Shown: in pieces, positions 1,920 to 44,349 of the stretch
How the letters are laid out: each line of letters begins with the position of its first letter
Position numbering within the stretch: position 1 is the stretch's first letter
Assembly: GCA_021824285.1 (NCBI GenBank)
Contig: JAKAKZ010000004.1
Span: forward strand, 225-64,224
Length of the DNA: 64,000 nt
Source: a bacterium
GTDB lineage: Bacteria; Patescibacteriota; Patescibacteriia; SG8-24
Direction of reading: 5' to 3'
The notes under the pieces: generated by a model
What the model saw: the letters and a program-made list of their open reading frames with translations, nothing else
The model's database searches: none
Told to the model about the DNA's origin: nothing
Translations under genes and position numbers: made by a program

Positions 1920-2465
1920 ATGCCCAAACAGACCCGCCAACTCGGCAAGCGCTGGTACGCCATCCACACCTACTCCGGCTACGAGGAGAACGTGGCGCAG
2001 AACCTGAAACAGCGCATCGAGTCCATGGACATGCAGGACAAGATCTTCGACATCATGATCCCGAAGGAGAAGAAGATCCGCATCAAGAACGGCAAGCGCA
2101 AGATTGTGGAGGAGAAGATCTTCCCCGGCTACGTGCTCGTGGAGATGATTGTCACGGACGACTCCTGGTACGTGGTGCGCAACACGCCGAGCGTGACCGG
2201 TTTCATCGGCACGGGCGTGGATCCGACGCCGATCGCCGAAACGGAGATCAAGGCGCTGCAGAAACGCATGGGCCTTGAGGAGCCGGAATTCAAGATCGAC
2301 GTGGTCGTGAACTCGGCCGTGAAGATCACCGACGGCCCGTTCAAGGGCTTCGAGGGCAAGGTAGCCGAAATCGACGAGGCGCGCGGCAAGATCAAGGTGC
2401 TCGTCTCGATGTTCGGCCGCGAGACGCCGGTCGAGCTGGATTTCTTGCAGGTGAAAAAAATATAA
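1920..2465 (+). CDS. nusG: transcription termination/antitermination factor NusG
   Basis: 181 aa with an NGN domain (KRWYAIHTYSGYE) and a C-terminal KOW motif. Confidence 0.9.
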   Translation: MPKQTRQLGKRWYAIHTYSGYEENVAQNLKQRIESMDMQDKIFDIMIPKEKKIRIKNGKRKIVEEKIFPGYVLVEMIVTDDSWYVVRNTPSVTGFIGTGVDPTPIAETEIKALQKRMGLEEPEFKIDVVVNSAVKITDGPFKGFEGKVAEIDEARGKIKVLVSMFGRETPVELDFLQVKKI

Positions 2466-2469
2466 GGAC

Positions 2470-2535
2470 TTTCCCGACTTAAAGTCGGGACCCCGCCCCG
2501 CATTAAACTAAGATGAAAGTGGCGGGGCCTCCAGG
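2470..2535. repeat. degenerate copy of dispersed two-hairpin element (family A)
   Basis: tttcccgac-ttaa-agtcggga followed by ccccgcc...ggcgggg. Same architecture as the copies at 24284, 25900, 41646 and 44066. Confidence 0.4.
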
Positions 2536-2563
2536 TCAAAAAGATCTAAACCGAATGCAGACA

Positions 2564-2593
2564 CCCCGGGCCGCAAGCCCGGGGTTTTGTTTT
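2564..2593 (+). terminator. rho-independent terminator after nusG
   Basis: ccccgggc-cgcaa-gcccgggg stem-loop followed by ttttgtttt. Confidence 0.7.
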
Positions 2594-2634
2594 AGCGAAA
2601 GGCAGGAAACCGCCAAGTTCGTCGCATAAGAACT

Positions 2635-2666
2635 GCTAAAAACAAAAACCGGCCGTTGAAGGCCGG
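2635..2666 (-). terminator. rho-independent terminator for the 2679..2930 gene
   Basis: ccggcc-gttgaa-ggccgg hairpin with a T-tract on the minus strand (aaaaacaaaaa on plus). Confidence 0.55.
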
Positions 2667-2678
2667 AAGGCGGAGAGT

Positions 2679-2930
2679 TCAGGACAGCAGGCGGACGATG
2701 GTCATGCCGGCGCACCAGCCGACCGTGAACACCAGGCCGCGGATAACGCTAGGCCAGAGGCCCTGACCGCGCCAGATTCGCCAAAGGGTGATGAGACCCA
2801 TCACCGCGCATGTGGTCGCGACCCCGAGCAGCGCGCTGTTCAGGGGCGTGAGATACTGGGCGGCCGCGCCGCCGGCGAGACACATGACGAACGACACCGG
2901 TACTTCACCTGGACGAAGAGGGGCTTCCAT
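2679..2930 (-). CDS. hypothetical small membrane protein (2 TM)
   Basis: 83 aa with two hydrophobic helices. Its own terminator lies downstream. Confidence 0.5.
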   Translation of the reverse strand: MEAPLRPGEVPVSFVMCLAGGAAAQYLTPLNSALLGVATTCAVMGLITLWRIWRGQGLWPSVIRGLVFTVGWCAGMTIVRLLS

Positions 2931-3037
2931 GTCTGTCCTCCGAAAAAGAACCTTAAGGAGTTAAGCACGCCTACGCTAATAGTCAATGTTCCAAGTTGAG
3001 GCGACAAAAAAAGCCCCACCGAAGGGGCCGAAGAGAC

Positions 3038-3670
3038 CTACCGTCCGAATTCCCGGAGCAGGCCGAGATCCACGAGCTGGGAGACCAGGCGGTCGTCGTA
3101 GAGGAACGAGTTCAGGCTCTCGGCCACGGACTTGCCATGGCCCAGCTCGATCATCAGCCGGCCCGTGTCCGCGCCGAGATGGCGGAACGACGAGAGCCGC
3201 GCGGCCAAAGTCGCGCCGCAGCCTTTCTGCAGGAGCCGCTGTGCCAGGGCGTCATGGTCGAGGCCGGTCAGGTAGTTGACGAGGCGAGGCACCACCTCCA
3301 CATCGCCGATGGTGATCAGCGCCTCCGCGGTGCGGAACCCGAGCCGACCGAAGGAGCCGACGTTGAGCTCGAATTCCTTGGCGAAGCCCAGGGCGACAAG
3401 GCGCAGGGCGACCTCCTCGTTCAGCCCGCTGAACCGGCCGAGACTGTCGATCACCTGACGCGGGTAGCCGAGATCGATGAGGCGCAGGGCCACGCGCGCG
3501 TCGAGCAGGCGAAAGCGGTGCAGGTTGTCGAGCACCGCATGCGTGCAGTACTCGGCGATGAACCGCAGTGCCGTCGCCGGATGCCTGTCGTCCGGCATCT
3601 CGTCCACAATCTTGAGATCGTGGTTGGCGAGGTAGTACGCGACCGCGTCTTCAGGATTCCAGTTGGGCAT
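3038..3670 (-). CDS. hypothetical repeat-containing protein (about 27-aa Leu/Arg-rich tandem repeats)
   Basis: ORF 3038..3715. The probable start is the internal Met giving MPNWNPED... Internal repeats of the form ALRLIDLGY.../ALRLVALGF.../AQRLLQKGC.../GRLMIELGH.../SQLVDLGLL... No known family recognised. Confidence 0.5.
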   Translation of the reverse strand: MPNWNPEDAVAYYLANHDLKIVDEMPDDRHPATALRFIAEYCTHAVLDNLHRFRLLDARVALRLIDLGYPRQVIDSLGRFSGLNEEVALRLVALGFAKEFELNVGSFGRLGFRTAEALITIGDVEVVPRLVNYLTGLDHDALAQRLLQKGCGATLAARLSSFRHLGADTGRLMIELGHGKSVAESLNSFLYDDRLVSQLVDLGLLREFGR

Positions 3671-3766
3671 GATTCTCTTTCCTCGTACGTGAAATGAGCG
3701 GCCGCAACCTATCATGTCCGGACGGCCACGTCAAGCCGACGCACAGCGGTCCGCCTTATTTTCCCA

Positions 3767-4501
3767 TTGCCGACTGCGGCCAAAGTGCTAACATTCAGCG
3801 ATGTCCTTTCACTTTCGAAGCGAGGTTACGCCATGTTCGATCCGCTGGCACTCGATGAGTTCGAATCCCGCACCGGCATCCGCAAAAGCGATTTTTCCGG
3901 CATTTGGGACCGCGCCGACCGCATCGTGGCCCTGCGGGACCTGGCCGCAGTCACGGGCGTGCAGGCCATGCCCTGGCCGTATCTCGAAAAGCTCATCCGC
4001 GGCGTGACGCTCGCCGGCGACCGCACCCGCCGCCCGTACCGCGACGGCCAGATTCGCCAACTCCGCATGGACCCCCGCGGCCTGACGCTCGGCCAGACCT
4101 TCATCCAGCGCTCCAAGTACCAGGCGCTCCTGGAGCACTTCGGCGATTTCTTCCGGGGCTTCTGCGTGACGAACGGCGTGGCCAAGTCGACGGCCGCCAT
4201 CGTCCTGGGGCGGACAGCGGACGGCACCCCGGCCATCGCGCACTACCTGCCGCCGATCGTCGAGGAACACGACGGGAAGTTCATCCTCATGGACGGCGTG
4301 CACCGGAACTTCCTGGTCCGCTGCGTCGGCACGACCATCGAGTCGATCGTCGTCCGGAACGTGGCCGAACCGTTCCCCTGCGACGCCCGCCCGTGGGAAG
4401 AGGTCCAAGTGACGGAAGAGAAGCCGGCCAAGGACCAGCGTTTCTTCAACCTCCGTCCGGAACTCTTCCGTGACGTGAAGCACATCGGCATCGACGGCTG
4501 A
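3767..4501 (+). CDS. ParB/Srx-like nuclease-domain protein (DGxHR motif)
   Basis: 244 aa with a TTG start. The motif ILMDGVHRNF matches the ParB-N/sulfiredoxin-fold catalytic signature. There is no HTH/ParB C-terminal dimerisation region, so this is not a canonical partition ParB. Confidence 0.55.
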   Translation: MPTAAKVLTFSDVLSLSKRGYAMFDPLALDEFESRTGIRKSDFSGIWDRADRIVALRDLAAVTGVQAMPWPYLEKLIRGVTLAGDRTRRPYRDGQIRQLRMDPRGLTLGQTFIQRSKYQALLEHFGDFFRGFCVTNGVAKSTAAIVLGRTADGTPAIAHYLPPIVEEHDGKFILMDGVHRNFLVRCVGTTIESIVVRNVAEPFPCDARPWEEVQVTEEKPAKDQRFFNLRPELFRDVKHIGIDG

Positions 4502-4544
4502 CTCCAGCCGTCTTTTTTTATCTCATGTGCCGCACCTGAATAAA

Positions 4545-4572
4545 AAAAGACCGGATCAGTTCCGGTCAAAAA
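4545..4572. terminator. bidirectional terminator-like hairpin
   Basis: aaaaaaa-gaccgga-tcagt-tccggtc-aaaaaa. Confidence 0.5.
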
Positions 4573-4832
4573 AGGGCGGGAATCCGTCGTAGCGGCTGAT
4601 TCGGCCGGCGCTGGCGCTTACGGCGCTCCGGCCTGAGCGGGATGGAATCGAATCGTTCCGACAGCCGGCGAACCTCGAGGAAACGCGCGGCCGGAATCGG
4701 CATCAGGACACAGCAGAGCCCCATGCCGGCTATCGCCAAACCGAGGAAACTCGCGCGAACCGACTCCCGAACCGCCCTCTTCAGACGCGTTTTGCGCATG
4801 TAAAGGCCTCTGATACGGCGTGTGGTGCGCAT
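4566..4832 (-). CDS. doubtful small basic ORF
   Basis: 88 aa, Arg-rich. The 3' end overlaps the terminator hairpin and no RBS is evident. Confidence 0.2.
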   Translation of the reverse strand: MRTTRRIRGLYMRKTRLKRAVRESVRASFLGLAIAGMGLCCVLMPIPAARFLEVRRLSERFDSIPLRPERRKRQRRPNQPLRRIPALF

Positions 4833-4974
4833 AAGTTAGACAAATAATTAAGGATTGTCAACCTAGCTGACAAGGTACGCGATTCGCCAGTGAAAGCAGC
4901 GCGTATCGCCAAAAACTCCACAAATATAAATGTGCCCTCCCCCGAAGCCGGGGAAGGGCACAGACTGCGTTCTT

Positions 4975-5055
4975 TGGCCCCAACGGGCCGTACGGGGTTT
5001 GGTTAGGCTCTGCCTTCTGCGATTTTGGCCCCAACGGGCCGTACTGGGTTTGGTT
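4975..5055. repeat. tandem direct repeat, 2 x about 31 nt (ttggccccaacgggccgtacKgggtttggtt), spaced 50 nt
   Basis: Two near-identical copies with one mismatch in the untranslated region upstream of rplK. Each contains a ggccc/gggcc mini-hairpin. Confidence 0.6.
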
Positions 5056-5376
5056 TCTTTGTTCGGCTTCATCACCGAACATCATAGGATAACACAAAAA
5101 GGCGTTTTTGTCAAGGGTATTTGACGCCATAAGAACGCCTTAATATAGCGAAAAAATAGACTAAAAACACGGCCAAATCTGGGCAATGGCTCTAGTGCGT
5201 CGCCTTTTTTGGTGAGGACGGAGAAACCAAACATCAACTGACCATCCCCGCCCGCCCACGCGCCCTTGCGCAAAAACCGTCTATAAGCTAATCTGGTGGT
5301 CGAATAAGCGGTGGGGCCGATGAGGCCCGCTTCTCGCCGCGACGTCACCTTATTGAACGTCGTTTTTTATTTTCGT

Positions 5377-5802
5377 ATGGCCAAGAAAATCAAAGTCCTC
5401 ATCAAGCTCCAGATTCCTGGCGCCAAGGCCAATCCGGCCCCGCCGGTCGGTCCGGCCCTCGGTCAGCACGGTCTGAACATCGCGGAGTTCTGCCAGAAGT
5501 TCAACGCCGCGACCCAGAAGATGGCCGGCGACATCATCCCGGTCGTCATCACCGTCTACGAGGACCGCACCTACACCTTCGTCCTCAAGACCCCGCCGGC
5601 TTCCGAGCTCCTGAAGAAGGCCGCCGGCATCCCGAAGGGTTCGGGCAAGCCGCTCACCGAGAAGGTCGGCAAGGTCACGAAAGCCCAGATCCGCGAGATC
5701 GCCGAAAAGAAGCTCCCAGACCTGAACACCACGAACATCGAGTCCGCCATGCGCACCATCGAGGGCACCGCCCGGCAGATGGGACTCGAGGTGACTCCGT
5801 AG
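5377..5802 (+). CDS. rplK: 50S ribosomal protein L11
   Basis: [32 protein letters not shown]... is the canonical L11 N-terminus. The internal Met is taken as start (ORF opens at 5311). Confidence 0.9.
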
Positions 5803-5931
5803 GAGTCATCCCGAGCGCAGCGAGGGATCCCGTCCATTTCGCGTCGAGATTGCTTCGCTCCGCTCGCAATGACATAAGATATTATTCACGTGGGAGGACC
5901 GATTTAACGGCCCGCCCGTACCACGACATAT

Positions 5932-6615
5932 ATGGCTCGCAGCAAACGCTACAAGGAACTCAAGACGCAGGTCGACTCCAAGAAAACCTACTCCCCGGAG
6001 GAGGCCATCGAGCTCGTGAAGAAGACCGCCACGACCAAGTTCGACTCCTCCGTTGAGGTCCATGTCCGCCTGGGCATCGACCCGAAGAAGGGCGAACAGA
6101 TGGTCCGCGGCACCACGACCCTGCCGCACGGCACGGGCAAGACCAAGAAGGTCGCCGTCTTCACCACCTCCCCGGACAAGGAGAAAGAGGCCAAGGATGC
6201 CGGCGCCGATCTCATCGGCGGCGAGGAGCTCGTCAGCCAGATCGTCTCCACCGGCAAGTGCGACTTCGACATCGCGGTCGCCACGCCGGACATGATGCCG
6301 AAGATGGCCAAGGCCGCCAAAGTCCTCGGTCCGAAGGGCCTCATGCCGAGCCCGAAGAACGACACCGTGACCGCCAAGGTCAAGGAGACCGTCGCGGCCC
6401 TCAAGAAGGGCAAAGTCGCGTTCAAGAACGACGACACCGCGAACGTGCACCAGGTCATCGGCAAGGCCTCGTTCGCTTCGGCCCAGCTGGTCGAGAACTT
6501 CAGCGCCCTCATGGATGCCCTGCGCCGCGCCAAGCCGTCCAGCTCCAAGGGTACCTATCTCATCTCCGTGACCCTGACCTCCACGATGGGCCCGGCGGTG
6601 AAGGTCCAGCTCTAA
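5932..6615 (+). CDS. rplA: 50S ribosomal protein L1
   Basis: 227 aa. MARSKRYKELKTQVD... is canonical L1. Confidence 0.9.
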   Translation: MARSKRYKELKTQVDSKKTYSPEEAIELVKKTATTKFDSSVEVHVRLGIDPKKGEQMVRGTTTLPHGTGKTKKVAVFTTSPDKEKEAKDAGADLIGGEELVSQIVSTGKCDFDIAVATPDMMPKMAKAAKVLGPKGLMPSPKNDTVTAKVKETVAALKKGKVAFKNDDTANVHQVIGKASFASAQLVENFSALMDALRRAKPSSSKGTYLISVTLTSTMGPAVKVQL

Positions 6616-6699
6616 TCAGTTATCCGATTCCGACTGGACGGCATATGGCGTATAATGCCATATGCCGTCTGCGTTTGGCGGCTAGTCCGCCTCACTGAC

Positions 6700-7053
6700 A
6701 TGAAACTTCCCGTCCGCAAAACCCTGGCCGTCGTGAGCGGCGCGCTGCTCACGGCCTCCCCGGCTTCGGCCGAGGTGCTGTTCACGGCCAATGCCCCAAC
6801 CGAGACCGTCGTCACCGGCATCCTCCGTTTTGCCCTGGCGCTGACGTCGCTGTTCCTCATGGTCGGCGTCGGTCAGGCCTGGCACCAGCTGCAAAACCAC
6901 GGCGGCAACGAGGAACGCAAGGCCGCGGCCCACGTCGCCTTCCGCGATGCGGTGCTTTTCTTCCTGCTGATCATCGCGGCCGGCTATGCCGTACCGTCGG
7001 CCGTGAACATCGCCTTCGCCGTGATCAATAACGGCGTCTCCATCAGCCTTTGA
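6700..7053 (+). CDS. TrbC/VirB2-like pilin family protein
   Basis: Signal peptide (MKLPVRKTLAVVSGALLTASPASA|EV), then two TM helices separated by a short charged loop, then a short tail. This is the VirB2/TrbC topology. The ORF opens at 6655, and the 6700 Met is the likelier start. The stop overlaps the dut start. Confidence 0.5.
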   Translation: MKLPVRKTLAVVSGALLTASPASAEVLFTANAPTETVVTGILRFALALTSLFLMVGVGQAWHQLQNHGGNEERKAAAHVAFRDAVLFFLLIIAAGYAVPSAVNIAFAVINNGVSISL

Positions 7054-7054
7054 T

Positions 7055-7486
7055 ATGCGCCTTAACCTCACGCGCGTCGACCGGGAGCTCCCCCTTCCCG
7101 CCTACGCCACCGCGGGCTCCGTCGCCTTCGACGTCTACGCCCGGACGGAGACGACTGTCGCGCCCAAGACAGTCGCGCTCATCCCCACGAACCTGATCGT
7201 GCAGGTGCCGGAAGGCTACGCCTTCCTGCTCTGCTCGCGCTCTTCGACGCCGGTCAAGAAAGGCCTGCTCACGCCGCACGGTTTCGGCATCGTGGACCAG
7301 GATTTCTGCGGGCCAAACGACGAGCTGCGGGCCCAGGTCTACAACTTCACCGATGCGCCGATCACCGTGGCGCGCGGCGAACGGATCGCGCAGGCGCTCT
7401 TGGTGCCCATCGCCAAATGCGATCTGCAGGAAACAGAGGTCGCGACCGCCGCGAGCCGCGGAGGCTTCGGTTCCACCGGAAGGTAG
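7055..7486 (+). CDS. dut: dUTP diphosphatase
   Basis: 143 aa with dUTPase motifs (AGSVAFDVYA, RSS, GxVDxDF.G, RGGFGSTG). Confidence 0.85.
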   Translation: MRLNLTRVDRELPLPAYATAGSVAFDVYARTETTVAPKTVALIPTNLIVQVPEGYAFLLCSRSSTPVKKGLLTPHGFGIVDQDFCGPNDELRAQVYNFTDAPITVARGERIAQALLVPIAKCDLQETEVATAASRGGFGSTGR

Positions 7487-7563: not shown

Positions 7564-8157
7564 CTACTTGATCTGGCCGGAAGTCAGCAGGCTGTTCACG
7601 AAGGCGTCGAGACGGTCGATGGCCTCGTCGAGCCGGCCGTCGCGGTTCACCACGACGAGCGACACCAGATCGGCGCGCTCCGTGACGAAACGCTCTTCGC
7701 GGGCCGCATTGCGGACGCGGCGCTCCAGGTCCTCCGGCGTGGTGCCCGGACGCTCCGAGAGGCGGCGCCGGATCTCGCGGATGTTGCCGGCGTCGACGAA
7801 GACGACGCGCGCCTCCGGCAGCACCCCCTTGATCGTCGCGGTGCCCTGCACGTCGACCACGCCGAAGACGATCGGATGGTCGATGCGCAAGCGCCGCAGA
7901 ACCTCGCGCGAAGAGCCGTAGAAGTGGGCGTGGACTTCCGCCCACTCCAGGAACTCGCCGCGGTCGCGGCGGGCCGTAAAATCCTCGGGCGTAGTGAAAT
8001 GGTAATCGCGCCCGCTGACCTCGCCGGGCCGTGGCGCCCGCGTGGTGGTGGTGATGAGGCGCGCCGCCGAAGGGTGGCGGCGCAGCATCTCGTCGACCAG
8101 AGTGGATTTTCCGGCGGCAGATGGGCCGGTGATGATGACGAAAGCGCCGAGTTGCAT
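7564..8157 (-). CDS. gmk: guanylate kinase
   Basis: 197 aa with P-loop GPSAAGKST and the guanylate kinase fold. Confidence 0.9.
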   Translation of the reverse strand: MQLGAFVIITGPSAAGKSTLVDEMLRRHPSAARLITTTTRAPRPGEVSGRDYHFTTPEDFTARRDRGEFLEWAEVHAHFYGSSREVLRRLRIDHPIVFGVVDVQGTATIKGVLPEARVVFVDAGNIREIRRRLSERPGTTPEDLERRVRNAAREERFVTERADLVSLVVVNRDGRLDEAIDRLDAFVNSLLTSGQIK

Positions 8158-8276: not shown

Positions 8277-9488
8277 CTAACGCACCTCAATGCGGATCCT
8301 CTTAGCCACCTGGGGCAGACGGCTGGCCCAGACCGGCGAAACGGATACCGAGGCGGACGAGACGCCATCCAGCTTCTCCAGGTAGCGCTTGGCCGCGTCC
8401 GCGGTGATGCCGACCAGCTTCTCCGGATCGAGCGAGGGGTTAGCCGGCGACAGCACTGCGGTCCCATGCGCGGCGATCCGCAAGGTGGCGCGCCCGGCGG
8501 CGAGATCGGTTTTTTCAAGATGCAATTCCTCGTCTTTCTCCGCCACCTCGTTCAGGGCGCGGCCGCTGGGCAACTGCCGTTCCAGATCGCTCCGCACCGC
8601 CTGGTTCAATGAGTTCCGGTCATAGAAGACGCCCACGGCCTTGACCGTCACGGACATCTCGAATGAATCCGCCTCCTCACCTGGCTGGACGCTCGACTGC
8701 TCGCCGAGGGTCGTCAGCACGGTGAATTCGGCGTCGCCCGTCGCCGCCCCGGCCTCGCGGCGCAATCGCTCCTTGAGCGTCCGCGCCAGCTCGTCTTCCA
8801 GCATGGCCTTCGCCTTCTCCGTATCCTCGAGCGTGACGGCTTTGATGTTCTGGGAGCCGCCGCTGATGGGCTGGATGATCTGAACCTTGAAATAGCGGCG
8901 CAGGTCTTCGTTCAATCCGGGAATCGAAAAGTCGGCGTCCGCGGTCTCTCCCTGCCGTCCGGAGACCGTGGAAAAGACCTCGACCTCCGTTCCCCCGCCG
9001 CCTGGTACGGTCACGGTCTTCTTGGTGCGGTAGAGTCGCCCGTCAGCGGCCAACAGGCGAGTCGTGGCGACGAGCGTCTGGCTGCGCGTCAGCCGGCTCT
9101 CGATGCGCACTCGACCTTCGGCCGGCACGTCCATGTTGACGAGCGAGGAGGCGGGGAAAACCCGCGTCAGGGTATCGGTAACCTCGTAGACGCCACCGGC
9201 GATTTCCCCCGAGGACGGCGATTTCGTGACGTCCAGCAGGAAACTGTCCTTGACCGTCTGGGGCGCGGACATGACCACGACCGTGGCGCGGGTAAAGACC
9301 ATATAGAGCACGAGCGCCACGAGACCGGCGGTAAACAGCACGAAAAGCGTCGCGATGCGCCGATAGACGGCGAGCGACGCGTTAGCCGCGAAAACGGCCG
9401 CCCCCTTGGGCGGAACCGCGGTCGGCGGCTTTACCGGCGGAGCGTCGGGCCTATCACCCGGCGGTTGTCCGTTACCGATGACCAACAT
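8277..9488 (-). CDS. hypothetical membrane-anchored protein (Pro-rich N-terminus, single TM, large extracytoplasmic domain)
   Basis: 403 aa with a TM at about residues 45-70. No recognisable motif. Confidence 0.55.
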   Translation of the reverse strand: MLVIGNGQPPGDRPDAPPVKPPTAVPPKGAAVFAANASLAVYRRIATLFVLFTAGLVALVLYMVFTRATVVVMSAPQTVKDSFLLDVTKSPSSGEIAGGVYEVTDTLTRVFPASSLVNMDVPAEGRVRIESRLTRSQTLVATTRLLAADGRLYRTKKTVTVPGGGGTEVEVFSTVSGRQGETADADFSIPGLNEDLRRYFKVQIIQPISGGSQNIKAVTLEDTEKAKAMLEDELARTLKERLRREAGAATGDAEFTVLTTLGEQSSVQPGEEADSFEMSVTVKAVGVFYDRNSLNQAVRSDLERQLPSGRALNEVAEKDEELHLEKTDLAAGRATLRIAAHGTAVLSPANPSLDPEKLVGITADAAKRYLEKLDGVSSASVSVSPVWASRLPQVAKRIRIEVR

Positions 9489-9677
9489 AATTCCATATTA
9501 GCATAAGGTTTGGAGTCTTGGAGGTGTGGAGAAAGAAAGTGGCGGAGAGAGAAAGAGAAAAAGTGACAAAGTACGGCCTTTTTCACGGCACTCAAAGATC
9601 AAAAATCGCGCCTTATCAGCGCGATTTTTACATTCACTTTCACTCTCCATCTCTCCTTCTCTCATTCTCTATAATCC

Positions 9678-12600
9678 TTATTCCGCCAGCACCGCACCTT
9701 TACCGACCACCGCCTCAATGTCCGCAATCGTATCCGCCGAAAAAGCTATGGAATAGCTCGTGGCATAGTGCCGCGCCGCGCCGTTCTCGCGGATCTCCAG
9801 CACCACGCGCCGGTTGCCGGGGTGCTCGCCCATCACGCGCTTGAGCTCGTCGGCCATCTGACGCGGCAGTTTCGGAGGCACGAGAACGCGCACCTTGGCC
9901 TGATCGGCGAAAGTGGCGGAGACTGGTTCGAGCCGGCGATGGCCGTTGGCGTAACCGAGGCGCGTACGGATGTCGGCGAGCGACTCCTGTTTCATCTCTT
10001 CGGCCGACTCCACCAGAAAACGGTGTTCGCCGTCCTTGTCGCTGAACTTGCCCTCGATCATGAGCGCCACGTCCGGCCGCCAGAGCGCGCGGTCCTTGGC
10101 CAGCACGGAGGGGAAGATGACGCATTCGATGCTGCCGCTCACGTCCGCCACGGTAGCGAAGGCCATGGGGTCGCCCTTCTTGGTGATGATGTCCTGCAGG
10201 GTCAGCACATAGCCGCCGATGCGCACCAGACCGCCGCGGCGGTCCTTGTACGCCTGTGCCACATCGCGGATGGGCGTCAGCAGATCGCCGAAATAGTCGC
10301 CGTATTCCTTATATGGATGTTCGGAGACATAGAGCCCCAAGAGCTCGCGCTCCCAGGAGAGCTTTTCGCGCTTGGTGGCCGCGGGCACGGGCCGCAACGT
10401 CACCTCGGCCCGATCGGCGAGCACCGGCGCGGCGCCGAACAGGTTCGACTGGCCCGAAGCCGCATCCTTCACTGCGGACTTATGGTAGGACAGAATCTGG
10501 TCGATGTTCGTGAGCAGGAGGTTGCGCTCCCCCATCGCATCCAGCGCGCCGGCCTTGATGAGCGACTCGAGCGCGCGCTTGTTGAAGCCCTTGGAATCCA
10601 CGCGAGCGGCGAAATCCGACAGGTTCTGGAACGGGCCGTGGGCCTCGCGCTCCGCGATGATGGCCGCGGCGATATCCGTGCCCAGGTTCTTGATGGCGCC
10701 GAGACCGAATCGGATCGACTTGTCGTCGATGTAGGTGAATTGCTGCTTGGAGGAATTGACGTCCGGCGGCAGGACGGCGATGCCGATGCTGCGGCAGTGC
10801 TCGACCATCTGGGCCACGGTCTCCACGTCGCCGGATTCCTCGGTCAGGACCGCGGTCATGTATTCGGCCGGCCAGTTGGCCTTGAGGTAGCTGGTCTGGT
10901 ACGCGACCATGCCGTAGGCGCAGGCATGGGCCTTGTTGAAGCCGTACGCGGCGAACGGCTCGATGAGCGCCCAGAGCTGCTGCGCGACCTCGGGCTTCAT
11001 GCCGTGCTTCACGCAGCCGGTCAGGAACTTGTCCTTCTGCTTGGCCATCTCCTCCGGGATCTTCTTGCCCATGGCCTTGCGGAACTTGTCCGCTTCCTCC
11101 CAGTTGTAGCCGGCCAAATGGATGGCGGAGAGCATGATGTCGTCCTGATAGGTCAGCACGCCGTAGGACATGCCCAGGATGTCCTTGAGCCGCGGGTCGA
11201 GGTAAGTGACGAGCGACGGGTTGTGCTTGCGGCGGATGAACTCTGGGATGGAGTCGATGGGTCCCGGGCGGTAGAGCGCGACCATGGCCATGATGTCCTC
11301 GACGCGCGAGGGCTTGAGGTCCATCAGGTACTTGGTCATGCCCGAACCGTTCAGCTGGAACAGGCCGATGGTCTCGCCGCGGCCGAGCATCTCGTAGGTC
11401 CGGGAGTCGTCGAGCGGGATGTTCTGCAGGTCGATGTCCACGCCCTTGGTGCGCTTGATGATCTGCACGGCGCGGCCGAGGATGGAGAGGTTGCGGATGC
11501 CGAGGAAATCCATCTTCAGCACGCCGGCCCCGTCCTCGCCGATGGCGCCCATGTCGTATTGGGTGATGAGCTTGTCGCCGCCGGACTCCAACTGCAGGGC
11601 GGTGTAGTCGGTGAGCGAAGTGGGCGCGATGACCACGCCCGCCGCGTGCACGCCGACCTGGCGGGCGCGGCCCTCGATGCGCTGGGCGAGCTCCAGGAGC
11701 CGCTTGGCCTGCGGGTCGGTGTCGATGAGGTTGCGCAGGTCCGCGGTCTCGTCGATGGCCCGCTTGATGGTCATGGCAAAGCCCTGGCTGCCCATGGGGA
11801 TCATCTTGGCGACGCGGTCCACGTACTGGATCGGCAGGCCGAGCGCGCGGCCGACGTCGCGCACGGAACCGCGCGCGGCCATGGTGCCGAAGGTGCAGAT
11901 CTGGGCCACGCGGTCCTTGCCGTATTTCTCGGTGACGTAGGCGATGACCTCGCCGCGCCGCGAATCCTCGAAGTCCGCGTCGACATCGGGCGCGGACGGG
12001 CGGAAGGGGTTCAGGAAGCGCTCAAACGGCAGGTTGTAGGTCAGCGGGTTGATCGGCACGATGTCGATGCAGTAGGACACGAGCGAGCCGGCGGCCGAAC
12101 CTCTCGTGGTCGTGACGATGCCGTGCTTCTTGGCCCAGCTGACGTAGTCGGAGACGACCAAAAAGTAGGTCGAATAGCCTTTGGTCTCGATGATGCCGAG
12201 CTCATAGTCCAGTCGCTCCTGCATGGCCGGCGTGAAATCCGGTATCTTGGCGCGCAGCCCGTCGTTGGCGAGCTTGCGCAGATACTGGTCGTGGGTCAGG
12301 CCGTCGGGCACGCGGAAATCCGCGAAGTGCCACTTGCCGATCTCGATCTTCACGTTGCAGCGTTCGGCGATCTTCACGGTGTTCTCCACGGCCTCGGGCA
12401 CGTCCTTGAACGCCTCCAGCATGTGGGCCTCGTCCGTGAGCGAATAGTCGGCGTCGGTCATGCGCAGGCGCCGCTCGTCGTCGAGCGTGCGGCCGTCCCC
12501 CACCGCCAAGAGCACGTCGTGCGCTTCCGCGTCCGATGGCTTGAGGTAATGTACGTCCTTCGTGGCCACGAGCGGGATGCCGGTGCGCTCCGAGAGGCGG

Positions 12601-44164: not shown

Positions 44165-44230
44165 TTCCGGCGGAGGGGGTGAGATTTGAACTCACGGTGC
44201 CTTTCGGCACGGCAGTTTTCAAGACTGCTG
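44165..44230 (-). pseudogene. second tRNA-Ser-like 3' fragment (anticodon arm, variable arm, T-arm, acceptor 3' strand), sequence-variant paralog
   Basis: Reverse complement reads GCAGT-CTTGAAA-ACTGC CGTGCCGAAAGGCACC GTGAG-TTCAAAT-CTCAC CCCCTCC. No matching 5' acceptor strand upstream. Confidence 0.45.
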
Positions 44231-44349
44231 CCTTGTTCGGCTCGACAATAATCTGAAGGTCTCGCCGAACACCAGGGCAGCCAATGCTGCCCGCAGACGC
44301 TGCGTCAACTCGCGTCCGCCCACTCGGCCACCCATGTTTACTTTTAAAG

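Follow-up and report, generated by a model that had tools for sequence, protein, structure and literature searches.

What fills the space between nusG and rplK in a Patescibacteria genome of the SG8-24 lineage, where the two genes lie 2911 nt apart, and how did it come to be there? The question concerns a 64,000-nt stretch of contig JAKAKZ010000004.1 (GenBank assembly GCA_021824285.1, positions 225 to 64,224 of the forward strand), hereafter the window, in whose own numbering the gap at 2466-5376 holds a gene for a ParB-like protein with a DGxHR motif, a gene for a repeat protein, two small open reading frames (ORFs) and repeat-bearing non-coding DNA. A preliminary description had taken the whole for a single acquired cassette, possibly a nuclease-based defence or addiction module, with a structured leader before rplK. 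The comparative analysis reported here makes it rather probable that the gap is a layered chromosomal variable region with an ancestral, deoxynucleotide-linked ParB-like gene, and not a single imported module. The oldest layer would be this gene, a resident between nusG and rplK that belongs to a Patescibacteria-wide family with the ParB/sulfiredoxin (Srx) fold; a recent, lineage-specific layer would comprise an alpha-solenoid repeat protein and the small ORFs mem83 and orf88, each with its own terminator, together with about 430 nt of unique repeat-bearing DNA; and the third layer would consist of the rplK promoter and a conserved leader of about 75 nt, through which ribosomal protein L1 could exert feedback on rplK-rplA.

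Results

A variable junction with a resident ParB-like gene

In the window, nusG (1920-2465, plus strand; 181 aa; Pfam NusG at 2.4e-30, and also KOW) forms the left border of the gap and rplK (5377-5802, plus strand; L11 domains at ~1e-29) the right one. The comparison set consisted of 80 genomes fetched by NusG similarity, whose NusG proteins are 75-87% identical to that of the window, and nusG and rplK could both be placed in 78 of them; fetched related loci carry the labels L001-L149 and homologous proteins the labels P####, and the public annotation used is the record of the same sequence, contig DAIERG010000048.1 (assembly GCA_027346945.1). All relatives of NusG, L11 and the insert proteins came from metagenome-assembled genomes of Patescibacteria, or Candidate Phyla Radiation (CPR). 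The gap has a median length of 71 nt in the 78 related loci (interquartile range 30-122), exceeding 300 nt in five and 1 kb in two of them, against 2911 nt here, which bears out the claim that the junction is abnormally split. Different genes are found at this junction in the two relatives closest by NusG, namely an IS1595/ISXO2-like transposase (5271-6065, minus strand) with a small membrane ORF in L001, and a 526-aa aldehyde dehydrogenase-like ORF (8619-10199, plus strand) with a C39-like peptidase (10270-10836, minus strand) in L003. Because the IS1595 transposase sits at this very junction, the site can be called insertion-prone, and in one Patescibacteria sub-clade the nusG-rplK junction is a variable spot, a hotspot for unrelated cargo.

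One of the genes in the gap has a longer history. The ParB-like ORF had been given a start at TTG 3767; the ORF is there, and homologues and the public annotation place its start at ATG 3833, giving a protein of 222 aa (3833-4501, plus strand; motif ILMDGVHRNF; ParB-CE-like, with the ParB/Srx fold) followed by its own terminator (4493-4512, plus strand). Four relatives (L081, L087, L091 and L093) have the gene flanked by nusG and rplK and oriented as here; they are 54-56% identical to the window in the ParB-like protein, 78-86% in NusG and 81-85% in L11. In the more distant L104, L121, L124 and L125 it stands a few kb downstream of rplK. The identity of the ParB-like protein declines together with that of NusG and L11 (ParB/NusG/L11 at 56/78/85, 55/85/85, 50/71/63, 46/59/55 and 43/59/55%), as vertical descent would lead one to expect. 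Judged from synteny and sequence divergence, the position of the ParB-like gene at nusG-rplK is the ancestral arrangement, predating the diversification of the sub-clade, and comparison of the junction across related genomes thus speaks, for this gene, against acquisition as part of a single cassette.

The neighbourhood of the ParB-like gene points to deoxynucleotide metabolism

The context of the gene elsewhere was read from 66 further loci encoding family members, whose neighbours were clustered. In 25 of these 66 loci a 5'(3')-deoxyribonucleotidase gene (Pfam NT5C) directly adjoins the family gene, usually head-to-head, a count that includes near-duplicate loci of one species and corresponds by our estimate to roughly 20 distinct cases. 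Recurrent neighbours within 3 kb are tmk, the dCTP deaminase gene dcd, NUDIX and HD proteins, an AAA_28 kinase-like protein, dut, gmk, thyX and UDG, while a nucleoside phosphorylase, a phosphoribosyltransferase, a dCMP deaminase and a CYTH protein were each seen at a single locus. The genes dut and gmk follow in L081, L087 and L091, the syntenic relatives with contigs long enough, and thyX and tmk are also present in all three; the window has dut at 7055-7486 and gmk at 7564-8157 (minus strand). Finally, a Dojkabacteria protein of 344 aa encoded on a 517-kb contig (P0216) fuses a ParB-CE-like part to a C-terminal HAD domain with the motif DFDDV (DxDxV), and this HAD domain shares 32% identity with the neighbour-type NT5C across 71 aa (pairwise E 3e-4).

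Two side observations belong to these neighbourhoods. A protein of ~245 aa that has no Pfam match recurs beside ParB-like genes (L133 5088-5825; cluster 'c10', in L096, L124 and L127), in company with AAA_28 kinase-like and HD proteins, and carries the sequence HPWNDACGR, reminiscent of the Fic motif HxFx(D/E)GNGR. At L082 (1-3658; JGI contig C687J35174_10000184), a Cas12a (Cpf1)-cas4-cas1-cas2 set lies ~2.3 kb upstream of the NT5C/ParB-like pair, probably by coincidence.

Could the region nevertheless be a horizontally acquired nuclease defence or addiction cassette, in which a ParB-like nuclease is accompanied by a membrane protein and has the repeat protein as its partner? Some defence systems do contain ParB/Srx domains (DndB, GmrSD and BREX-associated proteins), the split junction varies among close relatives, with the IS1595 transposase there in L001, each insert gene is separately terminated, and the repeat protein shows the rapid evolution that is common among conflict proteins. 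However, none of the four insert proteins had a PADLOC match at E<=1 or anything usable in NCBIfam or PHROGs, and searches of 50,697 phage records, of 72,556 plasmids and of IMG/VR brought up no relatives. No integrase, transposase, adjacent tRNA gene or flanking repeats occur in 2466-5376, and there is no compositional break, since the flanks fall within the GC range of the coding part (0.57-0.70). The ParB-like and repeat genes are divergent, a pairing that is absent from every other locus and does not fit a toxin-antitoxin module; since L149 has the repeat protein without the ParB-like gene, this pairing is not conserved. The ParB-like gene, in turn, is syntenic in four lineages, where it diverges in step with NusG and L11, and its recurrent neighbours elsewhere are deoxynucleotide-metabolism genes rather than nuclease partners. 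A defence or addiction cassette is therefore extremely improbable, and the comparison supports neither the single acquisition nor the defence function of the preliminary description.

The ParB-like protein has the ParB/Srx fold and defines a divergent family

The AlphaFold2 (AF2) model of the protein, built with the family alignment, reached a predicted local distance difference test (pLDDT) value of 93 and a predicted template-modelling (TM) score (pTM) of 0.89, and DSSP applied to this model placed the DGxHR motif where strand 149-154 ends and passes into helix 156-165. Its top Foldseek matches in the PDB were Atu1540, ParB-CDP, Noc, pNOB8 ParB-N and Srx-ATP/ADP (2hwj, 6sdk, 7ol9, 3cyi and 7bnk; probability 0.7-0.9), and in BFVD every top match was a ParB/Srx protein (probability up to 1.0); at the sequence level, neither the protein by itself nor its family profile matched anything in the PDB. 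The Pfam family PF24392 ('ParB CE domain') was matched by 22 of 32 family members at E<=1 (best E 5.9e-9). Taken together, model, structural matches and family matches place the DGxHR motif in a genuine ParB/Srx-fold context, as had been proposed.

The proposal that the protein is a nuclease fared differently. No helix-turn-helix (HTH) or ParB-C match to Pfam was found in the 32 family members, and the window protein ends at a GIDG tail; no parA-like cluster occurs among the neighbours in the window and the 66 loci; and nothing in the analysis gave evidence of nuclease function.

The 72 close homologues are all from Patescibacteria (Parcubacteria, Kaiserbacteria, Liptonbacteria and others) and about 222 aa long, and an exhaustive profile search recovered 829 representative clusters at E<=1e-3, 89 of them at E<=1e-30. 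Thirteen positions are invariant over 32 sequences, including Q88 (GQTF), E144 (AHYLPPIVE), D154, G155 and R158, and H157 is conserved in at least 90% of them. An equivalence of conserved residues to the catalytic Gln/Glu of ParB is the author's reading and not a result; hhalign gave no alignment between the family profile and a Spo0J sequence. The more distant relatives P0181 and P0193 match PF24392 at 1e-26 to 1e-31 and are bona fide members, and on profile scores the Patescibacteria branch is a divergent sister group of PF24392 rather than a member by the Pfam rule.

A putative role in deoxynucleotide salvage or homeostasis

What might such a protein do? NTP (nucleoside triphosphate) binding and hydrolysis are known from ParB and Noc, and phosphotransfer in the same fold from sulfiredoxin and SerK; CPR bacteria, for their part, have no de novo nucleotide synthesis and depend on salvage. 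A survey lists NTP binding, hydrolysis and phosphotransfer among the documented activities of the ParB/Srx fold, with ATP, GTP or CTP bound according to lineage, and describes the ParB-CTPase fold as widely reused as a switch, without mention of Patescibacteria or nucleotidases (PMC12704722). Because the known activities of the fold coincide with linkage to NT5C and deoxynucleoside triphosphate (dNTP) genes, we infer that the ParB-like protein is an NTP-dependent housekeeping enzyme or switch of deoxynucleotide metabolism, and not a nuclease weapon. It would bind a nucleoside triphosphate and act in deoxynucleotide salvage or homeostasis, most likely as a phosphotransferase or NTPase that works with NT5C, or opposite to it in a kinase/nucleotidase-type cycle, and less likely as an NTP-sensing regulator of NT5C; the NTP binding, the chemistry and the partnership with NT5C are predictions from fold and context. 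The wider proposition, that the Patescibacteria ParB-CE-like proteins are an unrecognised class of deoxynucleotide metabolism, being either (deoxy)nucleoside or deoxynucleoside monophosphate (dNMP) phosphotransferases cycling with NT5C or NTP-sensing switches gating NT5C, is put forward as a tentative possibility, which we ourselves regard as doubtful.

Several observations weigh against a deoxynucleotide role or against the family assignment behind it. In the structural comparison, the Foldseek E values are weak (0.03-0.4 in the PDB, 0.008-0.4 with BFVD included), only ~105 of the 222 residues are aligned, and the N-terminal half of the protein has no assigned fold; the window protein itself scores 17.5-17.8 bits with PF24392 (E 0.003-0.004), below the 23-bit gathering threshold. 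In the genomic context, the window contains no NT5C, tmk or thyX within its 64 kb, and the divergent partner of the ParB-like gene here is the repeat protein; the P0216 fusion is a single example, a search with P0216 having returned itself alone; canonical PF24392 members stand in other contexts, for example beside a CoA-ligase-like gene or a pterin-binding gene; the 78 NusG relatives have no ParB-like gene within 8 kb; and the closest relative by L11, L149, has none beside rplK, so that the gene is dispensable at this site. Literature searches on ParB-CE, on PF24392 and on ParB-like proteins with deoxyribonucleotidase returned nothing relevant and no biochemistry on either group.

The same salvage context would also accommodate a true DNase, a nucleotide-releasing salvage nuclease that turns imported or damaged DNA into dNMPs for dephosphorylation by NT5C. 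A route from DNA through dNMPs to deoxynucleosides fits these neighbours, the conserved neighbourhood also includes a pilin-like gene, and DNase activity has reportedly been found in some ParB/Srx proteins, among them Osa (Maindola and colleagues, 2014). The best-documented activities of the fold are, however, NTP binding, hydrolysis and phosphotransfer, ParB-CDP and Srx-ATP being among the top structural matches (PMC12704722); Pfam detected no DNA-binding domain in the window protein or the 32 family members; and the sequence, read by eye and with no dedicated tool, showed no evident secretion signal or membrane anchor. Because a DNA-binding module is not present, we rate the salvage nuclease below an NTP-dependent enzyme, and regard it as unlikely.

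Recent, lineage-specific genes fill the rest of the coding interval

The remaining ORFs have a much narrower distribution than the ParB-like gene. The membrane gene and the repeat-protein gene of the preliminary description are real. The former, mem83 (2679-2930, minus strand), is a publicly annotated ORF for an 83-aa small membrane protein with 2-3 hydrophobic segments and has a terminator at 2666-2649 (minus strand); it matched no family in Pfam, NCBIfam, PADLOC or PHROGs. A homology of mem83 to the 114-aa membrane ORF of L001 was considered and set aside, the pairwise E of 0.014 being too weak to claim. An ORF that had been overlooked, orf88 (4566-4832, minus strand), is likewise publicly annotated and encodes a very basic protein of 88 aa with one transmembrane segment and 24 Lys+Arg; its terminator lies at 4567-4549 (minus strand), and just upstream of it a promoter scan found the promoter-like TTGTCA-18-AATTAT (4844-4873, minus strand). 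The stretch of about 550 nt that had been called untranslated is accordingly the 544 nt of non-coding DNA at 4833-5376. Neither mem83 nor orf88 had homologues in any fetched locus save that of the same genome.

The repeat-protein gene (3038-3670, minus strand; terminator at 3029-3012, minus strand) starts at 3670 as first noted and encodes 210 aa with six helical-hairpin repeats of ~27 residues that form an alpha-solenoid. The 27-residue periodicity is marked (offset-27 self-score 18, against -144 +/- 26 in shuffles), and the AF2 model (pLDDT 79) consists entirely of paired helices in six helix-turn-helix repeats. Designed armadillo repeat proteins were the best Foldseek matches (probability 0.9-1.0, with E only about 1e-2), and no Pfam repeat family reached threshold. 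A search of 5.8 billion proteins found a single homologue, P0074 (59% identical), whose gene lies directly upstream of rplK and divergent from it in L149. Since the repeat proteins of window and L149 share about 57-59% identity where L11 shares 97% and L1 89%, the repeat protein evolves much faster than its surroundings; L149, apart from lacking the ParB-like gene, also lacks orf88 and the repeat-rich DNA, and has a different downstream gene. On these sequence comparisons, the repeat protein is a fast-evolving alpha-solenoid found in two lineages only and not a conserved partner of the ParB-like gene, and its modelled structure suggests that it is probably a binding scaffold.

Such rapid turnover of the junction, and the absence of homologues of mem83, orf88 and the repeat-rich DNA outside this lineage, would also be expected if the interval were neutral junk, consisting of decayed insertions and spurious ORFs, with function limited to the rplK promoter and leader. 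Against this stand the strong conservation of the ParB-like ORF, with its 13 invariant residues over 32 sequences and its confidently predicted fold, the repeat protein, which keeps its frame and its 27-aa repeats at 59% identity, and the terminator that every ORF has of its own. For the ParB-like gene and the repeat gene this explanation is already refuted, and for the interval as a whole it is highly improbable.

Repeat-rich non-coding DNA and a candidate small RNA

The structures reported in the non-coding DNA are mostly real and differ in detail from their first account. The dyad TTGTCA-N7-TGACAA (4855-4873), contained in the promoter-like site upstream of orf88, is present and is not beyond chance, about one perfect 6-bp dyad with a short spacer being expected in 544 nt (544 x 8 spacings / 4096). 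The hairpin given as 28 nt spans 32 nt (4931-4962), with a 14-bp stem and a 4-nt loop, and is followed by a T-run on the minus strand only. The direct repeats, described as 31-nt tandem repeats at 4975-5055, are two 32-nt copies (4973-5004 and 5024-5055) that are 97% identical and separated by a 19-nt spacer, hence not strictly tandem, and Tandem Repeats Finder (TRF) reported no tandem repeat; they are unique in the 64-kb window, where none would be expected by chance. A reading of these repeats as a mini-CRISPR was rejected, there being two copies, a 19-nt spacer and no cas genes nearby. Likewise, a link to IMG/VR through an 18-nt core of the repeat came down to one exact match inside a coding region and is coincidental.

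Read on the minus strand, 4925-5114 has the layout of a candidate small RNA unit, with the promoter-like TTGACA-17-TATCCT and an upstream TG (5114-5086; promoter scan), a hairpin (5061-5080), the two 32-nt repeats (5055-5024 and 5004-4973), each of which forms a GGCCC/GGGCC hairpin, and the 14-bp hairpin followed by a U-run as terminator (4962-4931; terminator scan). The candidate folds at -71 kcal/mol (z = -4.6 vs shuffles), has no Rfam match, is not found in L149 and is unique to this genome. From this layout, the repeat-rich DNA may encode a minus-strand small RNA of ~150 nt. As the repeat-rich DNA (4833-5260) lies upstream of the probable rplK promoter, it is not part of the rplK leader.

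The repeats also raise the question of whether the ParB-like protein might be a CTP- or NTP-gated DNA-binding switch, like ParB, Noc or VirB, that acts on nearby palindromes and regulates or organises the adjacent operons. Candidate sites exist in the GGCCC-N4-GGGCC of the two 32-nt repeats, which stand 51 bp apart and ~470 nt downstream of the gene, and reuse of the ParB-CTPase fold in switches is widespread (PMC12704722). No HTH or other DNA-binding domain was found in the protein, however, the repeats occur in this genome only, neither the four syntenic relatives nor L149 having them, and the conserved linkage and fusion to NT5C point to metabolism; a DNA-binding switch is thus quite improbable.

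Structured sequences of other kinds occupy the equivalent position in relatives. Long imperfect hairpins, with arms of 33-40 nt made up of 7-8-nt tandem repeats, precede the rplK leader in L091 (6705-6790), L093 (3114-3185) and L149 (1476-1592), homologous neither to one another nor to the repeats of the window. Their common placement suggests a generic insulating or terminating role of structured DNA or RNA upstream of the rplK leader.

A probable rplK promoter and a covarying leader

Aligned with L149, the 544 nt of non-coding DNA are conserved only from ~5263 onward. The conserved part begins with TTGCGC-17-TAATCT (5266-5294, plus strand), whose hexamers and spacing recur as TTGCCT-17-TAATGT in L149 and TTGCGC-17-TAACCT in L091 with a different spacer sequence; on this conservation it is the probable rplK promoter, one that the consensus promoter scan did not call. 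Downstream lies a leader motif (5308-5340, plus strand) with an outer helix GCGGU/GCCGC, an inner hairpin GGGCC-GAUGA-GGCCC and a 3' junction GCUUCUC, identical in L149 between differing flanks. It is followed by a terminator-like hairpin GACGU...ACGUC with U6 (5341-5368, plus strand), which ends 9 nt before the rplK start codon, is conserved in L149, and by its sequence is a possible attenuator.

Of 88 loci, 23 have the sequence GCUUCU[C/A] upstream of rplK, and in 15 of the 20 motif-bearing loci examined both helices, with 8 or more pairs, stand where they are expected, compared with 5 on average and at most 10 in flank shuffles. The helices vary greatly in sequence, each position showing 3-5 pair types, as in a covarying element. 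Loci with the motif upstream of rplK include L001, L003, L007, L015, L023, L040, L050, L054, L063, L081, L087 and L149. This architecture was scored by a script of our own with a shuffle control, because a covariance model from four AT-rich seeds proved too narrow and recovered one extra locus; since helix lengths differ among loci, MAFFT and RNAalifold gave no usable alignment. It counts against the pair counts that the helices were chosen by maximising pairing, which makes the counts partly circular, the shuffle control being aggregate only.

Of the structured leader first described, the covarying element in the last ~75 nt before rplK therefore stands, and the repeat-rich DNA falls away from it. 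A covariance search of the non-coding DNA before rplK, in which an L11 leader or small RNAs had been anticipated, matched no Rfam family: leader, repeats and an element 3' of nusG all failed to match Rfam 15, with the window searched at gathering thresholds and the sub-regions at permissive E. L1 feedback on the leader of the rplK-rplA operon is known from E. coli and from archaeal L1 operons. By analogy, the leader motif is probably where L1 would bind to autoregulate the rplK-rplA operon; the 64-kb window contains no rRNA with whose 23S L1 stalk the leader could be compared.

Surrounding genes and further features

The local gene order begins with an rlmN-like radical SAM gene (21-1070) and a 99-aa ORF, and secE (1678-1881) lies upstream of nusG. 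The terminator scan found terminator-like hairpins 3' of every insert gene and of nusG, that of nusG at 2563-2585 (plus strand). Directly behind nusG, a three-stem element (2468-2538, plus strand) has kept its stems and diverged in its loops relative to L001 (5138-5215); the stems are a closing GACUU/AGGUC, a hairpin UCCCGAC/GUCGGGA and a hairpin CCCCGCC/GGCGGGG with a 23-nt loop. The element has partial similarity in L091 and reached threshold with no Rfam family, the best being anti-hemB at 25.5 bits, below threshold.

Downstream of rplK follow rplA (5932-6615), the pilin-like gene (6655-7053, plus strand; 132 aa), dut and gmk. This rplA-pilin-dut-gmk neighbourhood is conserved, with a T4SS_pilin-like (PF18895) gene at the same place in L081 and L087. 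The rplK-rplA junction is also split elsewhere, with a gap of ~1 kb in about 25 of the 78 NusG-selected loci (for example L011 9027-9992 and L020 8987-9973), where it holds a conserved gene for a multi-pass membrane protein of ~320 aa in a large Patescibacteria group (Kerfeldbacteria-like and others). A fourth tRNA-like Rfam match in the window (44179-44242, minus strand; 29.4 bits against a threshold of 29, partial model 9-63) lies between two tRNA-Ser genes, was not called by ARAGORN, and may be a fragment or pseudogene.

Discussion

A motif read as that of a ParB-like nuclease, found in a split conserved operon, resembled a defence island, and the comparative context turned out to be that of housekeeping, which is a caution for the reading of similar loci. 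To our knowledge, several salvage steps of Patescibacteria have no assigned gene, and an inexpensive and well-defined candidate for such a step is a phylum-wide ParB/Srx protein that is linked to NT5C, to which it is once fused, and also to tmk, dcd, dut, thyX and gmk. If a deoxynucleotide role is correct, core small-molecule nucleotide metabolism would be added to the range of the ParB-CTPase fold; if the protein is a phosphotransferase, a substrate cycle with NT5C would set dNTP pools in auxotrophic, salvage-dependent bacteria. The covarying rplK leader, absent from Rfam, could in turn serve as a new RNA family with which to annotate L11-operon regulation in the phylum.

How does the ParB-like protein compare with its relatives of known kind? 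With PF24392, the Patescibacteria branch shares the core PP(I/V)VE...(L/M)DGxHR followed by a helix, yet it has an extra N-terminal segment of ~45 residues and a conserved C-terminal FRDxKxxGIDG tail, and its NT5C/dNTP-gene neighbourhood was absent for the one canonical member examined. The CTPase domain of ParB, Noc and Spo0J has the same fold, with a phosphate-binding motif at the same strand-helix junction; the window protein differs in that it lacks an HTH, a C-terminal dimerisation domain, an adjacent parA and the GERRxRA box, in place of which stands DGVHRNF, and its N-terminal half is different. Sulfiredoxin is matched through its ATP- and ADP-bound structures (target-normalised TM 0.5-0.6) and has in common an xGxHR-type phosphate-binding motif, whereas the window motif lacks the catalytic Cys (DGVHR against GGCHR in Srx), the window protein is twice as large, and its context is nucleotide metabolism instead of peroxiredoxin repair. 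The archaeal serine kinase SerK, a small-molecule kinase of the ParB/Srx fold, was not among the top 50 Foldseek matches.

The other two layers can be set beside known systems in the same way. The repeat protein resembles armadillo (ARM) and HEAT solenoids in its tandem helix-turn-helix repeats, although its repeat of 27 residues is shorter than the 42 of ARM and the ~39 of HEAT. Finally, while its GCUUCUC 3' junction sets it apart from every Rfam 15 family, the rplK leader shares with the L1 operon leaders of E. coli and archaea a conserved, covarying arrangement of helix, internal loop and hairpin in the short 5' untranslated region of rplK-rplA.

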